A stretch of 32,000 nt of DNA, from contig BAAFHK010000001.1 in the NCBI GenBank assembly GCA_042852035.1, positions 60,001 to 92,000 of the forward strand, in the 5' to 3' direction. Origin of the DNA: Candidatus Saccharimonadota bacterium (GTDB lineage Bacteria; Patescibacteriota; Gracilibacteria; BD1-5; UBA2023). Positions 1 through 11,864 of this stretch are shown piece after piece. How positions within the stretch are numbered: position 1 is the stretch's first letter; each line of letters opens with the position of its first letter. The notes under the pieces are model-generated. The model did no database searches and had not been told where the DNA came from. It was given only the letters and a program-made list of their open reading frames with translations. The translations under genes and the position numbers were made by a program.

Positions 1-120
1 TCTCATGTCGTTGTCTTCCTTGTCTCAGATGTCTGATTTCCCACCATTCTTCAGGTGAGACCTTTTACCACAGGATCAGTGTGGTAAATAGTAAATTAGA
101 GATTTATTTTATTTTGTCAA

Positions 121-151
121 TATAAAAAAGATTCACGATTGGGTGAATCTT
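121..151 (-). terminator. Intrinsic terminator oriented for the minus strand
   Basis: Perfect 9-bp stem AAGATTCAC(128-136)/GTGAATCTT(143-151) with a 6-nt loop. Read on the minus strand, it is followed by a T-run. It lies downstream of minus-strand ORF 580-263. Confidence 0.6.
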
Positions 152-167
152 AGGTTTATACAAGTGA

Positions 168-189
168 AGGCCCGCGCAGTGGCGGGCCT
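168..189 (-). terminator. GC-rich hairpin at the 3' edge of GC-rich island 1
   Basis: 8-bp stem AGGCCCGC/GCGGGCCT around a 6-nt loop. The trailing U-tract is weak. Its composition is unlike the AT-flanked host terminators. Confidence 0.45.
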
Positions 190-262
190 CTTTACCATTC
201 CCTCGTTTCTCCTTTCATTCCTTACTTTCGTAGAAACTTAGGAGAATGGTTGTTGGAGGGGT

Positions 263-580
263 TCAGTGCAGCCGGAGTTTCTTCCGCTTGCTCTTGGCGG
301 CTTCGATGAGGTCATGCGCCGACTGGAAGGGTGACTTTTCGCCGTGGCGACGCTTCACACCGTGTTCTTCCAGCAGGCGCTCTTCCTCTTGCTTGAAGGC
401 AAGAATCGTCGGGGACAACTTCGTCCCCGAGGCGTGATTCTTGTCCAGTTCATAAGCCGTTGCCAAGAGCTTGGTCCAGCGGTCCTTCTTCTGGGCCGAA
501 CGCTTCTGCCGGGCATGCCAGCTTTGGCGCATCCGGTCACCACGGGACCTGTCATTTTCGTGAGTTTGCAGTTGTTGCAT
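263..580 (-). CDS. Hypothetical basic 105-aa protein on GC-rich island 1 (standard-code ORF ending in TGA)
   Basis: Uninterrupted ATG..TGA ORF (MQQLQTHENDRSRGDRMRQSWHARQKR...). A strong Shine-Dalgarno GAGGAGGGG (complement of 583-591) lies just upstream of the ATG. Codon third positions are G/C-biased. The other overlapping ORFs in the island look like GC-rich artefacts. No family recognised. Confidence 0.6.
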   Translation of the reverse strand: MQQLQTHENDRSRGDRMRQSWHARQKRSAQKKDRWTKLLATAYELDKNHASGTKLSPTILAFKQEEERLLEEHGVKRRHGEKSPFQSAHDLIEAAKSKRKKLRLH

Positions 581-656
581 TTCCCCTCCTCAAGGGAATA
601 GGTCAAATAATGAACTGGCGCCCCACGGCACCATCATCCTATTAAATGACACCTGT

Positions 657-707
657 AGTCTATCGCTTCTCTAGTTTCTTGTCAAACAAATTTTCTCATT
701 TTATATA
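657..707. promoter_or_regulatory. Divergent promoter pair sharing a palindromic -35 (TTGTCAA/TTGACAA)
   Basis: Plus strand: TTGTCA(679-684)-N17-TATATA(702-707), pointing toward sodB. Minus strand: TTGACA(685-680)-N17-TAGACT(662-657), pointing toward ORF 580-263. Confidence 0.5.
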
Positions 708-781: not shown

Positions 782-1369
782 ATGTCATTTATTCTTCCTT
801 CTCTCCCATACGCTCTTGATGCACTCGAGCCTCATATCTCAAAAGAAACTCTTGAATATCACTATGGGAAACACCATCAGACCTACGTTGATAATCTGAA
901 TCGTCTCCTTCCAGGAAGCGAATACGAAGGGAAAACTCTTGAGGAAATTATAAAGAATGCCCCTGCTTGAGGAATATTTAATAATGCAGCCCAAATCTGG
1001 AACCATACATTTTATTTTGAATCCCTCACGCCTGCTGGGCACCATATTCCTTCGAAATCACTCTATGATGCGATTAATCTGAGGTGGGAATCTCTTGATA
1101 ATTTCATTGCAGAATTCAACAAGGCAGCTCTCGCAAATTTTGGATCAGGCTGGACCTGGCTTGTTACAAAAAAAGATGGAACACTCGAGATTGTATCCAC
1201 GAAAAATGCAGATACTCCTCTTACTACCTCTGAGATTCCACTCCTTACTTGTGATGTCTGGGAGCATGCATACTATATTGATTACCGAAATGCTCGAGCG
1301 AAGTATGTAGAAAATTTCTGGAAGGTAGTCGATTGGCATCGAGTGAGTGATCGTTATGATAAAAGATAA
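782..1369 (+). CDS. sodB: Fe superoxide dismutase (195 aa)
   Basis: [36 protein letters not shown]..., then TGA(968-970) read as Gly in ..[19 protein letters not shown].., then ..[18 protein letters not shown]... Near-colinear with E. coli SodB as I remember it. TAA at 1367-1369. Confidence 0.95.
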
Positions 1370-8729: not shown

Positions 8730-9194
8730 ATGGAAAATGTACAAAAGAGGAATCTCTCAAACCCATACAATACGTTCAGCACTATTTGTGAAACCTTCTC
8801 TCGTAGAGAAGGTATAGAAAGGAGATATTGATCTCTTCTTTTTCCCAGCCGATATGCGCCAGATATCTCTGGACTCGCACAGATTATAGCAAGAGGTCTG
8901 GATGGAAGATCGGGACCAGTAAGTATCGAGTTAACAACAATCTCAAGCAAAGTACAGAGGCGAATTGATGAGGTAGTGACTCAAATGTTAAGCTCAAAAA
9001 GAAGAATAAATCTCGCAACGAGAGATGGTGTAGATCAATGGAACGCTAAACACTGAATTTTTTATCCGAACTCTCTCTGAGAGCTTGAATATGTTCTTGC
9101 AATGAACGAAGGGGTTATGGTTCACTGAAGTATTCCTGATGTGATTTTTATTTCAGATGCTCTTTCTGAAAAGTATGAATGATTCCCAAAGTAA
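8730..9194 (+). CDS. Hypothetical protein (154 aa)
   Basis: MENVQKRNLSNPYNTF...GRSGPVSIELTT...WNAKH-G-IFYPNSL... 5 in-frame TGA, verified line by line. Tandem TTGACG/TTGACA promoters lie upstream at about 8662-8716. Confidence 0.65.
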
Positions 9195-9210
9195 AAAAGA
9201 GGAAATATTA

Positions 9211-9238
9211 TTGACATAGTTTATATAATATATATTAT
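9211..9238 (+). promoter_or_regulatory. Host-type promoter immediately upstream of GC-rich island 2
   Basis: TTGACA(9211-9216), then 16 nt, then TATTAT(9233-9238), in AT-rich sequence. The only downstream plus-strand ORF is 9278-9886. Confidence 0.5.
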
Positions 9239-9277
9239 ATACTTCACTTATCCAGGACTTGCACACGTCGTGCGAGA

Positions 9278-9886
9278 ATGGAAAGTACAACCACAGGAGC
9301 CAGCATGTCCCCATTTGAATCGTTGTTCGACCAAGGCCAAGGTCCCCAAGAGCTCGAATCCCTCTTCGAGATGCTTCAGGGCATCGAAGGACTCGAATCC
9401 CTCATCCGCAACCAGGGCCGTCCCAAGAAGCTCGACCTGGTCGACGCAACCATCAGCATCGCCATGATGATGATGGTTGATGTGCCCAAGGAAGTAATCC
9501 GGGATTCGCAGCTCAAGTCTGGCATCAGCCAGTTGAAGAGCGAACTGGAGTCTGCAGTGCAGGCCCACCTCGCACCGCTCGAGACGCTCGCCAAGGCCGC
9601 CGCCGATCGGCACAATCGTGCCCTCATCGCGCGGCTTGCGAAGCGGAAGCTCTCGCCCGAGGGTCTCCTCGAGCAGTGCACGCCGCGACTCGCGCTCGCA
9701 GTCGAAGCGTTCCGTCGTGAACTGGCCGAAGCACGCGCCGAACAGGCGATGTGCTACGCAGACTACTGCCACGGCGAACTCAGGACCATCGAGGCCGAGG
9801 CTCGGAAGCGTCACCATCGCTCGACGGCTCGCCGAGCAGGTGCTGCGGCCCGCCGGGTCAAGCAGAAGGTGCCGCCGAAAGGCTGA
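9278..9886 (+). CDS. Hypothetical 202-aa protein on GC-rich island 2 (standard-code ORF ending in TGA)
   Basis: MESTTTGASMSPFESLFDQGQGPQELESLFEML..NQGRPKKLDLVDA..., followed by an Ala/Arg/Glu-rich helical tail. Clear G/C third-position bias in this frame only. The overlapping ORFs (255 aa on the minus strand, among others) look like GC artefacts. No SD and no family recognised. Confidence 0.6.
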   Translation: MESTTTGASMSPFESLFDQGQGPQELESLFEMLQGIEGLESLIRNQGRPKKLDLVDATISIAMMMMVDVPKEVIRDSQLKSGISQLKSELESAVQAHLAPLETLAKAAADRHNRALIARLAKRKLSPEGLLEQCTPRLALAVEAFRRELAEARAEQAMCYADYCHGELRTIEAEARKRHHRSTARRAGAAARRVKQKVPPKG

Positions 9887-9925
9887 TGCATCAACAATGG
9901 GGCTCATGAGGCTCCTCACACAAGG

Positions 9926-9948
9926 CCGCCCTCGGGCGGACTTTTCTT
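9926..9948 (+). terminator. GC-rich hairpin plus T-tract at the 3' end of island 2
   Basis: CCGCC-CTCG-GGCGG, followed by ACTTTTCTTT. Confidence 0.5.
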
Positions 9949-9951
9949 TAT

Positions 9952-9983
9952 AAAAAAACCCTCTTTTAGAGGGATTTATTTTT
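9952..9983. terminator. Bidirectional host terminator (thrS 3' end)
   Basis: AAAAAAACCCTC-TTTTA-GAGGGATTTATTTTT. The thrS stop codon lies in the loop. Confidence 0.7.
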
Positions 9984-11864
9984 GATTTCTTCTCCGATTC
10001 TTCTTTCGAAGTCATCGATATATTCGGTCGTTTGAGTTTTTGTCTTAAAATTTCGTACCGCGAGACTGCTTGATTTCATCTCTTGTTCTCCGACGACAAG
10101 AATATAGTTTACATGATCTGTTTCAGCATTTCTAATCTTTTTCCCGAGAGAGTCTGACGAGTCATCAACGCTAACGCGAATATTCGTATCAAGAAGATTT
10201 TTCTTTACAGCATAACCATATTCTACGAACGCTTCACCCACTGGGATGACACGAACTTGCTCTGGAGCAAGCCAGAGAGGGAAAACTCCAGCGAAGTGTT
10301 CGATCATGATTCCCATAAATCGTTCAAGGCTTCCTGAAATGGCACGATGAATCACGACAGGTTGTTCATCTTCCCCTTGTTCATTTTTAAATGAGAGTCC
10401 AAATCGGTTTGGCTGATTAAAATCACACTGTATAGTCGCAAGTTGCCACTCTCGTCCGATAGCATCCTTGAACATGAAGTCAAGTTTGGGTCCATAGAAA
10501 GCTGCCTCACCTGGCATTGGTCGATAGTTCAGACCATTGGCGATTGCTGCATCTTCGAGGGCTTTTTCTGCGATTTCCCAGACGCTATTGTCTCAGAGGT
10601 ATTTTTCTGGAGTACTCATATCACGGATAGAAAGTGATACCCAGTATCCATCCATAAGTCCAAAAGTCGTATAGAATTCTTTAATAATATTTACAATTGT
10701 GGAAACTTCATCTTTGATCTGACTGACACGACAAAACAGATGTCCATCATCTTGAGTGATAGATCTCACACGAGTGAGTCCTGAAAGTTGTCCAGTTTTT
10801 TCATCACGGTAGACGGTTGCTGGTTCGAAATAGCGGATAGGCATATCACGGTATGAGAACTGATTATCCGCGAAAAGTTGCATATGGTGAGGACAGTTCA
10901 TTGGCTTCAAAAAGAAGTTCTCCTTCGAAGTTCCACCATACACTGAGAACATATCTTCGAGGTATTTTCCGGCATGTCCTGAAGTTTGATAGAGTTCTTC
11001 TTTCGCGAGGTGAGGGGTCCAGACTCGGTGGTATCCTTTATCAGCATGTAGGCTCCAGAGATAATCTTCTATTGCCTTTCTCATGATCATTCCTTTTGGT
11101 TGAATGAGTGGAAGCCCAGAACCAACAAGATCAGAAACCGTGAAAAGTTTCATCTTCTTTCCGAGGATTCGATGATCACGTTTTTTTGCTTCCTCCATCA
11201 TTGTCTTATAGGCATCAAGCTCAGTTCCAGTCTCGAAAGCAAGACCATAAATACGAGTGAGTTGTTTGTTTTTTGCATCTCCTCTCCAGTAAGCTCCTGC
11301 GAGTTTATCGAGGGAAAATGAGTCTTCAGAAATCTCATTTGTATTTATTACATGAGGCCCCTGGCACATATCGATAAAAGTCGAAGTACGGAAATCGAAA
11401 TTGGTTTTTCCTTGATTTTCACCTACAACGGATCGACCATTTGTATCTTCGATAGCATAGGAGTCAGGATTATTTAAAAACTCAAATCCTTCATATGCAG
11501 GGTTATGGAACTTTCCGATATTTGCAAAAAATGAAATCGTAGTTTCACCCTTCTTCTCAAGATCCTCAATCATTTCGAGTTTATAAGTTTCACCAAGAGT
11601 GGAGACAAGAGTTTTTGCATCATTTACTGAGAGTGAAAATTGCTTAAATTCCTGACCCTCACGAACAATGGCTTTCATTTTTTTCTCGATATCTTTGAGT
11701 TTGCTTTCTTCGAGTGTTGATTCTCCGAAATCGATATCATAGTACCAACCATTATCGACATCTGGTCCGATAGCGAGTTTCGCATTGGCGCCCATAACCA
11801 TGCGAGTGGCTTGTGCCATGATGTGAGAGAGGGAGTGACGGCGAGTAGAGAGAGGGAGTGACAT
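9966..11864 (-). CDS. thrS: Threonyl-tRNA synthetase (632 aa), no N-terminal TGS domain
   Basis: Starts MSLPLSTRRHSLSHIMAQATRMV..AIGPDVDNGWYYDIDF, which is the editing-domain HxxxH region. Class II core FLKPMNCPHHMQLF..RYFEPATVYRDE..GLTRVRSITQDDGHLF. One in-frame TGA (10593-10595) joins the two track ORFs. Confidence 0.95.

Follow-up and report, generated by a model that had tools for sequence, protein, structure and literature searches.

Candidate end-paired mRNAs of resident TGA-ended genes in a bacterium that reads UGA as glycine

Introduction

The type I toxin mRNAs hok and aapA, of hok/Sok (plasmid R1) and aapA/IsoA (Helicobacter pylori), are made as inert full-length transcripts in which a long-distance interaction that joins the 5' end with the 3' end sequesters the Shine-Dalgarno (SD) sequence (PMC6733600). 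Here we describe two GC-rich islands that may follow a comparable plan in a 32,000-nucleotide stretch of contig BAAFHK010000001.1 (positions 60,001 to 92,000; hereafter the window), which comes from a bacterium assigned a genetic code with UGA as glycine. Each island carries a small protein gene ending in TGA: open reading frame 1 (ORF1) on the plus strand beside the ThrRS gene, and ORF2 on the minus strand near the start of the window, where a third small gene, ORF3, also begins. The explanation that we favour, tentatively and at a little less than an even chance, is that the islands hold resident genes whose mRNAs are end-paired and translationally gated, much like hok and aapA, and in which a UGA at the hinge of the pairing is read through. 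On the modelled structures they would be the first candidate end-paired, translationally gated mRNAs in bacteria of the Candidate Phyla Radiation (CPR), a design previously undescribed in a recoded CPR bacterium.

The likeness to hok/Sok and aapA/IsoA lies in a predicted structured mRNA of about 0.5 kb with an anti-SD sequence near its 3' end and, in ORF2, a CU-rich tract beside the SD. The products differ, being hydrophilic, basic proteins of 105-193 amino acids (aa) at the islands and hydrophobic peptides of 30-60 aa in the two known systems. The islands also differ in that we found no antisense promoter at either of them that would give an RNA over the 5' untranslated region (UTR) or the coding sequence (CDS), although an RNA encoded in trans is still possible. 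Furthermore, the island anti-SD lies directly past a codon that is sense in this bacterium, so that ribosomes would run into it, and several stable hairpins lie 3' of it, which makes activation by trimming of the 3' end unlikely; in neither respect do the islands resemble hok and aapA.

A second described plan is that of brfA in Bacillus subtilis, where the terminator lies within the ORF and trans-translation controls expression (PMC6881298). Like brfA and arfA of E. coli, the islands have, in this genome, a terminator inside the frame before a usable stop, and they encode small basic proteins. Unlike brfA and arfA, they show no sequence similarity to these factors, encode much larger products, do not conserve the layout in ORF2 and ORF3 orthologues, and are found in a setting of UGA reassignment, where one expects the partner RF2 to be missing. 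A third comparison is with the code-11-compatible phages predicted to infect Gracilibacteria and Absconditabacteria, which avoid TGA stops and work under both codes (Liu et al. 2023, PMC10746230). The islands share with these phages the lack of in-frame TGA in a sequence associated with UGA=Gly, but they end in TGA and are chromosomal, syntenic single genes between housekeeping genes; because the phages avoid TGA stops, they are no model for the islands.

Results and Discussion

Two TGA-ended genes in a UGA=Gly genome

The ORF1 product is 100% identical to HHAS10_00590 (Candidatus Altimarinota bacterium), and the window belongs to the JAEDAM01 genome HHAS10. HHAS10 is an activated-sludge genome of an episymbiont of Zoogloea, its UGA=Gly code was inferred by Codetta, and the ribosome signal of Zoogloea is lowered where HHAS10 is attached (PMC11393006). 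In the following, "host" denotes HHAS10 as the bearer of the islands, and Zoogloea is always named.

The housekeeping genes of the window require TGA as a sense codon. Host genes carry 1-20 in-frame TGAs each, and in FolD, SOD and UppS these coincide with well-known conserved glycine positions. TGA makes up 24% of the glycine codons across host genes, yet only 1/46 in ThrRS and 1/32 in GlyRS, and it accounts for 0/14 of the glycine codons within ORF1 and ORF2. Because the conserved ThrRS and GlyRS genes are nearly free of TGA too, its absence inside the island genes is weak evidence of a foreign code. UGA is not read by RF1. Bacteria with a reassigned UGA are described as having characteristically lost RF2 (gTranslate preprint; PMC8629427), and no prfB, tmRNA or smpB entry appears in the supplementary material to the HHAS10 paper.

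The ORF1 island comprises the following elements, of which the structural ones are predicted.

9211..9238, plus strand: promoter TTGACA-16-TATTAT, 11/12 matches
9258..9276, plus strand: 5' UTR hairpin CTTGCAC-ACGTC-GTGCGAG in the minimum free energy (MFE) fold; a similar hairpin occurs in the orthologous locus L001
9295..9315, plus strand: ribosome-binding region, with SD AGGAGCC (9295-9301), ATG (9305-9307) and codons 2-4; 5' strand of the long-range helix
9305..9883, plus strand: conserved CDS of 193 aa; alternative upstream ATG at 9278
9884..9886, plus strand: terminal TGA, at the homologous position in 6/7 family lineages, the seventh having TAA
9895..9917, plus strand: anti-RBS tract CAATGGGGCTCATGAGGCTCCTC, complementary to the SD, the AUG and codons 2-4 (RBS, ribosome-binding site)
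9926..9949, plus strand: GC-rich intrinsic terminator CCGCC-CTCG-GGCGG with T-run, stem 9926-9939
9952..9983, both strands: bidirectional A/T-flanked terminator, stem 9959-9973, shared with the convergent ThrRS gene (stop 9966-9968)
9887..10048, plus strand: non-conserved 53-codon tail in translation table 25, to TAA 10046-10048

In table 25 a read-through peptide spanning the ORF1 UGA would be GGCINNGAHEAPHTR. Translation of ORF1 probably starts at ATG 9305 rather than 9278, since AGGAGCC precedes this codon and the L001 orthologue starts at the aligned position. Current annotations of the island genes are wrong at both ends. The public model of HHAS10_00590 (289 aa, window 9179-10048, plus strand), for example, takes as its start an ATG that precedes the promoter, crosses the TGA and stops at TAA 10048. 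It thereby gains 42 residues at the N-terminus and 54 at the C-terminus, none of them conserved in any orthologue.

The ORF2 island is built from corresponding parts.

657..685, minus strand: promoter TTGACA-17-TAGACT
602..650, minus strand: predicted 5'-terminal stem-loop of the transcript, kept in 4 orthologues with compensatory changes
578..601, minus strand: ribosome-binding region, with CU-rich tract CTATTCCCTTG (601-591), SD GGAGGGG (589-583) and ATG (580-578)
266..580, minus strand: conserved CDS of 105 aa
263..265, minus strand: terminal TGA, in all 4 lineages, one of them at only ~50% aa identity
255..261, minus strand: anti-SD CCCCTCC, paired with the SD in the MFE and consensus folds
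195..249, minus strand: conserved 3' UTR hairpin; in the full-length fold its 3' strand, CGAGGGAATGG (205-195), is paired to the tract 601-591 of the 5' UTR
168..189, minus strand: GC-rich hairpin without a T-run
120..151, minus strand: intrinsic terminator AAGATTCAC...GTGAATCTT with T-run, stem 151-128; the sole canonical terminator among the hairpins of ORF2
104..262, minus strand: non-conserved 52-codon table-25 tail, to TAA 106-104

Both ORFs end in TGA (9884-9886 and 265-263) and lack an internal TGA, as a preliminary description of this DNA had stated, and its claim that in table 25 neither frame closes before the terminators, the next stops being TAA 10046-10048 and TAA 106-104, also held. 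It had listed two terminator hairpins for each gene; those at 9926-9948, 9952-9983 and 151-121 stand as terminators, and that at 189-168, lacking a T-run, does not. The conflict that it saw between the TGA endings and a host with UGA=Gly is real. It is moreover conserved and unexplained, it is linked to an mRNA design with predicted paired ends, and it is stronger than the preliminary description could know.

Predicted pairing between the ends of the mRNAs

Folding of the full transcripts, compared with shuffled sequences, gave z scores of -9.4 for ORF2 and -5.0 for ORF1, and island transcripts had z scores of -1.9 to -8.5 compared with -1.7 to +0.9 for host genes. In unconstrained full-length MFE folds the SD/start region pairs with a tract that starts at the terminal codon or no more than 11 nt after it in 10/11 ORF1 and ORF2 loci. 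The mean pairing probability between RBS and post-terminal tract is 0.22-0.86 in those 10 loci, compared with 0.00-0.02 in 6 host controls.

The predicted helix of ORF1 joins AGGAGCC..CAUG..CCCCAUU (9295-9315) to AAUGGGG..CAUG..GGCUCCU (9896-9916), and its duplex energy is -28.4 kcal/mol, compared with -13.6 +/- 3.1 for shuffles. Four ORF1 loci have a cognate duplex far stronger than the shuffled level, and a fifth locus also reaches significance; the corresponding RBS/post-stop duplexes of host genes are at chance level. In ORF2 the SD GGAGGGG is predicted to pair with CCCCUCC at +4 to +10 past the UGA, and a second helix is formed by 601-591 with 205-195. In the ORF1 family the bases beside the GGAG core covary, occurring as CC:GG, ACC:GGU, AA:UU and AAU:AUU; the covariation score was 0.28 compared with 0.15, and 9/500 shuffles reached 0.28, in an alignment of few sequences that was anchored by hand. 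The UTRs of ORF2 are more conserved than its CDS.

At two ORF1 loci (L011 4317-4395 and L001 3672-3700) the 3' UTR holds a copy of the RBS together with its complement as a local hairpin. A three-way structural switch, in which the mimic and the true RBS compete for the anti-RBS, is a possibility that this arrangement suggests. A search of Rfam returned one tRNA across the window, and the islands had no match at the gathering threshold or at E <0.5.

Conservation of the terminal codon

The conserved end of the protein is followed by TGA in 13 lineages (6 for ORF1, 4 for ORF2 and 3 for ORF3), by TAA in one and never by GGN. The TGA-ended ORF1 lineages are the window, L001, L007, L008, L010 and L014; the TAA is found at the homologous position in L011, a close relative of the TGA-ended L010. 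No orthologue of an island gene has an internal TGA. The sequence flanking the ORF1 TGA varies freely across orthologues, the post-TGA tails show no protein similarity among orthologues, and those of ORF2 differ by frame-breaking indels. Across the aligned orthologues the conservation of the terminal TGA is clearly above chance. The pattern is that of a stop, since a neutral glycine codon should drift to GGN or other codons at saturated synonymous divergence. The preliminary description had called the genes written in the standard code; this does not follow from the missing internal TGA alone, but the stop-like evolution of the terminal codon sustains the idea. Bacteria with UGA=Gly are assumed to have no UGA end signal, and here three unrelated families keep UGA at a conserved protein end; if it retains a stop-like or gating role, this would bear on how a code changes and on how complete a reassignment is.

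Two local causes for the conservation were considered. Inspection by eye of the UGA context gave no conserved slippery sequence of a prfB-like shifty stop and no long hairpin of the kind expected for a SECIS-like element (a selenocysteine insertion sequence). Base pairing of the UGA itself was rejected as the reason, as UGAU:AUCA pairing occurs only in L008, L014 and L010.

Position-dependent stop and sense codons are known from some ciliates (e.g. Condylostoma) and from trypanosomatids (Blastocrithidia), where the decision is made through eRF1 and poly(A)-proximal factors. As in these organisms, a codon that is sense internally also marks a conserved coding end near the 3' end of the island mRNAs, a likeness drawn from the sequence; unlike theirs, the mechanism has no bacterial counterpart. 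UGA might accordingly be glycine within host genes and an end signal before a structured 3' end, acting through a release factor that was retained or altered, or through stalling and a rescue step that frees the protein. The TGA/TAA interchange between the close relatives L010 and L011, the strict retention of TGA at saturated divergence, and the predicted stable helix at or within 11 nt of the UGA in 10/11 ORF1 and ORF2 loci would all agree with such a role. We know of no bacterial precedent, however, and to our knowledge tmRNA and ArfB-type rescue are inactive on ribosomes with intact downstream mRNA. With the loss of RF2 that is typical of UGA reassignment (gTranslate preprint; PMC8629427) also counting against it, we regard a context-dependent UGA as improbable.

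If UGA is instead read through, the transcripts could be deliberate non-stop mRNAs in the manner of arfA and brfA, in keeping with the deliberately unstable product that the preliminary description had listed among its explanations, with a product that is SsrA-tagged and destroyed unless trans-translation is overloaded, such that the genes would encode stress or backup factors. Both frames in the window are open through the terminator and the C-termini are basic, and in ORF1 there is no in-frame TAA or TAG before the end of the terminator in 6/6 TGA-ended lineages, with 3 and 2 for the other frames (not significant). Against this, ORF2 has an in-frame stop 13-23 codons past the TGA and before the terminator in 3/4 lineages, and ORF3 has one before the terminator in 1/2 lineages, namely in the HHAS10 copy. 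The frame count led us to reject the non-stop layout as a conserved design; it is real in this genome, only as layout. In addition, no similarity to ArfA or BrfA was found with Pfam and NCBIfam, the products have 105-193 aa where ArfA and BrfA have ~55-72, both of these factors need the RF2 that is typically absent in UGA-reassigned bacteria, and L011 ends in a normal TAA. We therefore give an ArfA/BrfA-like function a low probability.

Residency, synteny and coding selection

The ORF1 family was seen only on contigs where TGA is sense. ORF1 adjoins ThrRS in the window, L001, L007 and L008, and the ORF2 and ORF3 orthologues sit between SOD and RecG in L002, L004 and L006; the neighbours at the orthologous loci are all TGA-sense genes. 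The ORF2 orthologues have 80, 74 and 50% aa identity. The ratio of nonsynonymous to synonymous divergence (dN/dS) of the island genes is 0.13-0.42, dS is saturated within the ORF1 family, and the sole indel inside the ORF2 CDS is in frame. The island genes recur in the same neighbourhoods in independent assemblies from at least 10 samples, and in the window the island promoter and terminators abut host sequence seamlessly. By synteny and substitution pattern, the islands are long-resident, vertically inherited, lineage-specific protein genes of JAEDAM01. ORF1 and ORF2 were also compared as possible paralogues, and this was rejected.

For one genome pair (L002) the proportion of synonymous differences (pS) was 0.29 in ORF2 and 0.69 in the adjacent SOD gene (782-1366, plus strand), although the aa divergence of ORF2 is higher. 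The lower synonymous divergence of ORF2 fits selection at the RNA level.

Searches for relatives outside this setting were negative. No relatives were found in phages and plasmids (tblastn), IMG/VR, GTDB representative genomes or JGI metagenome contigs; protein searches of 5.8 billion and 1.8 billion proteins gave no homologue outside the same contig type; and neither direct or inverted repeats nor target-site duplications flank the islands. Three sources left open by the preliminary description lose their footing on these results: a very recent transfer, in view of syntenic orthologues in TGA-sense relatives, saturated dS and dN/dS below 1; a virus or mobile element with a code different from that of its host, in view of the absence of phage, plasmid and IMG/VR relatives and of flanking repeats; and contamination or an assembly artefact, in view of syntenic orthologues in several other TGA-sense genomes. 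Contamination, a chimeric assembly, or a non-coding GC-rich RNA with a chance open frame could be read into the several open frames on both strands and the strongly structured RNA, but the recurrence in at least 10 samples, the dN/dS below 1, the in-frame indel and the seamless host junctions make such an origin far-fetched.

An old horizontal acquisition needs more weighing. Here the genes would have come from a GC-rich donor with the standard code, TGA, SD and terminator would be frozen relics, and the tails would be neutral. The GC content, the third-position GC (GC3), the SD, the TGA end and the GC-rich terminators are indeed like those of genes from high-GC bacteria, and the families are confined to a narrow clade. 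No donor-like homologue turned up, however, among the 5.8 billion and 1.8 billion proteins, phages and plasmids, and synteny is kept even between relatives that share only 56% identity in the C-terminal region of ThrRS. At saturated synonymous sites a neutral TGA and a foreign composition should both have decayed, so both appear to be selected, and we consider frozen relics an unlikely explanation.

Composition, codon usage and SD sequences

The islands have a GC content of 0.58-0.62 and a GC3 of 0.72-0.74, compared with a GC3 of 0.25-0.41 in host genes, and their codons differ accordingly: CGG makes up 32% vs 2% of arginine codons, AAG 92% vs 32% of lysine codons and GGC 50% vs 5% of glycine codons. 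Among the leucine codons of the islands, CTC accounts for 56% and CTG for 24%. The island genes have strong SDs, unlike the 11 host genes checked, where no SD-like motif was present in the 15 nt upstream of the start (e.g. 782, 14664, 26078 and 28677); five of these starts have well-defined N-termini. As a separate matter, Codetta has suggested reassignment of CGG/CGA in related Absconditabacteria (PMC8629427), and with islands rich in CGG in this lineage the decoding of CGG may be worth a look.

These properties bear on a further explanation, in which the functional product ends at the UGA and arises only in a setting where UGA terminates translation. A candidate setting is the cytoplasm of the standard-code bacterium to which the symbiont attaches (Zoogloea for HHAS10) after transfer of mRNA or DNA, and another is the symbiont itself when an invader supplies RF2, so that the gene would act as a code-switch sensor or effector; otherwise the mRNA would stay closed in the symbiont, and any leaky product would be extended or tagged. 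Agrobacterium T-DNA is a case of genes housed in one genome with the expression signals of a colonised organism. It serves as an analogy for standard-code decoding only, since there a transfer apparatus and border repeats exist and here the case is known from the genes alone. Standard-code decoding would, if true, unite the stop-like TGA, the lack of internal TGA, the SDs, the foreign codons and the sequestered RBS, and it would bear on host manipulation by ultra-small episymbionts if another translation system reads the genes. In its favour are the stop-like terminal codon (13 TGA, 1 TAA, 0 GGN) without internal TGA in orthologues, the strong SDs in an SD-less genome, GC-rich codons barely used by the host and GC-rich intrinsic terminators.

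The choice of CTC over CTG for leucine points the other way, as it looks like a C-ending form of host usage and unlike that of typical high-GC proteobacteria; a codon match to a Zoogloea-like host was correspondingly not supported by the leucine codons, in a comparison made without any Zoogloea sequence. The L001 orthologue is not GC-rich either (GC3 0.35, in a locus of 49% GC). The mRNAs are predicted to be nuclease-resistant with a sequestered RBS, and HHAS10 is attached to Zoogloea (PMC11393006), both of which would suit a transfer, but a delivery mechanism for RNA or DNA is not known. Nor is any RF2-encoding phage of these bacteria known, and the code-11-compatible phages avoid TGA stops (PMC10746230). 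We hold decoding under the standard code to be distinctly unlikely.

A translationally gated mRNA as the favoured explanation

We return to the favoured reading of resident genes with end-paired, gated mRNAs. Each island gene has its own consensus promoter, a strong SD and a terminator, and its GC-richness and odd codons would most likely come from selection for a very stable end-paired mRNA and not from a foreign origin. The 5' hairpin and the 3' hairpins would cap the transcript, and the SD and start codon would be held in a long-range helix with the tract at or just past the terminal codon, leaving the transcript inert until it is remodelled. The terminal UGA would lie at the hinge of this helix, where a host ribosome would decode it as glycine and enter the anti-SD tract and the 3' UTR. 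Its passage would unzip the closing helix and append the non-conserved tail, and in this genome no stop codon would halt the ribosome before the transcript's 3' end, so that little or no stable product might accumulate unless conditions change. We base this on the conservation, the synteny, the coding selection, the terminal TGA and the contrast with SD-less host genes, together with a structure that is predicted with some covariation; from these we infer that the UGA is read through, that the helix acts as a gate and what becomes of the product. If selection does act at the level of the mRNA, it would follow that such selection can freeze a codon.

Several points weigh against this explanation. 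The structures are predictions, their covariation comes from few sequences in a hand-anchored alignment, and neither L007 nor the ORF3 family shows the pairing in the MFE fold. The host genes appear to lack SDs, and the resident ribosome may make no use of those in the islands. Gating also gives no reason for a hinge codon that is UGA in 13 lineages and, where it differs, always UAA: a mere glycine codon predicts replacement by GGN or other sense codons, and a wanted stop predicts a predominance of TAA or TAG. Recent allele exchange among relatives could instead be the source of the low synonymous divergence in ORF2. Finally, the products have no recognisable function, as Pfam, PHROGs, NCBIfam and PADLOC assigned no family to ORF1-3 or to a fourth gene described below.

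Products and neighbouring small genes

The ORF1 protein has 193 aa, a grand average of hydropathy (GRAVY) of -0.42 and an isoelectric point (pI) of 9.2; its N-terminus is disordered, and a helical hairpin makes up its C-terminal part. The ORF2 protein, with 105 aa, a GRAVY of -1.41 and a pI of 10.4, has three predicted helices. The C-termini of both are very basic, with 13 K/R/H in the last 30 residues. AlphaFold models consisted of helices only, and Foldseek gave no match to the PDB. The low-confidence N-terminal part of ORF1 contains a direct repeat with a 39-nt period (9348-9367 and 9387-9406), encoding ELESLF and GLESLI.

Directly downstream of ORF2 lies the GC-rich ORF3, which encodes 87 aa with a CxxC motif and has its own promoter and 5' hairpin. 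The part of it within the window is:

1..124, minus strand: ORF3 promoter, 5' UTR and first two codons (ATG 6-4); the remainder lies beyond the window start

A full copy is present at L006 1938-2201 and orthologues at L005 801-1055 and L002 2852-3109, all of them TGA-ended. The fourth GC-rich ORF for a small basic protein, of 91 aa with a KKKAKPAKKAAKK tail, is found at L008 8418-8693; it has its own AT-rich promoter and a GC-rich terminator, and it ends in TAG.

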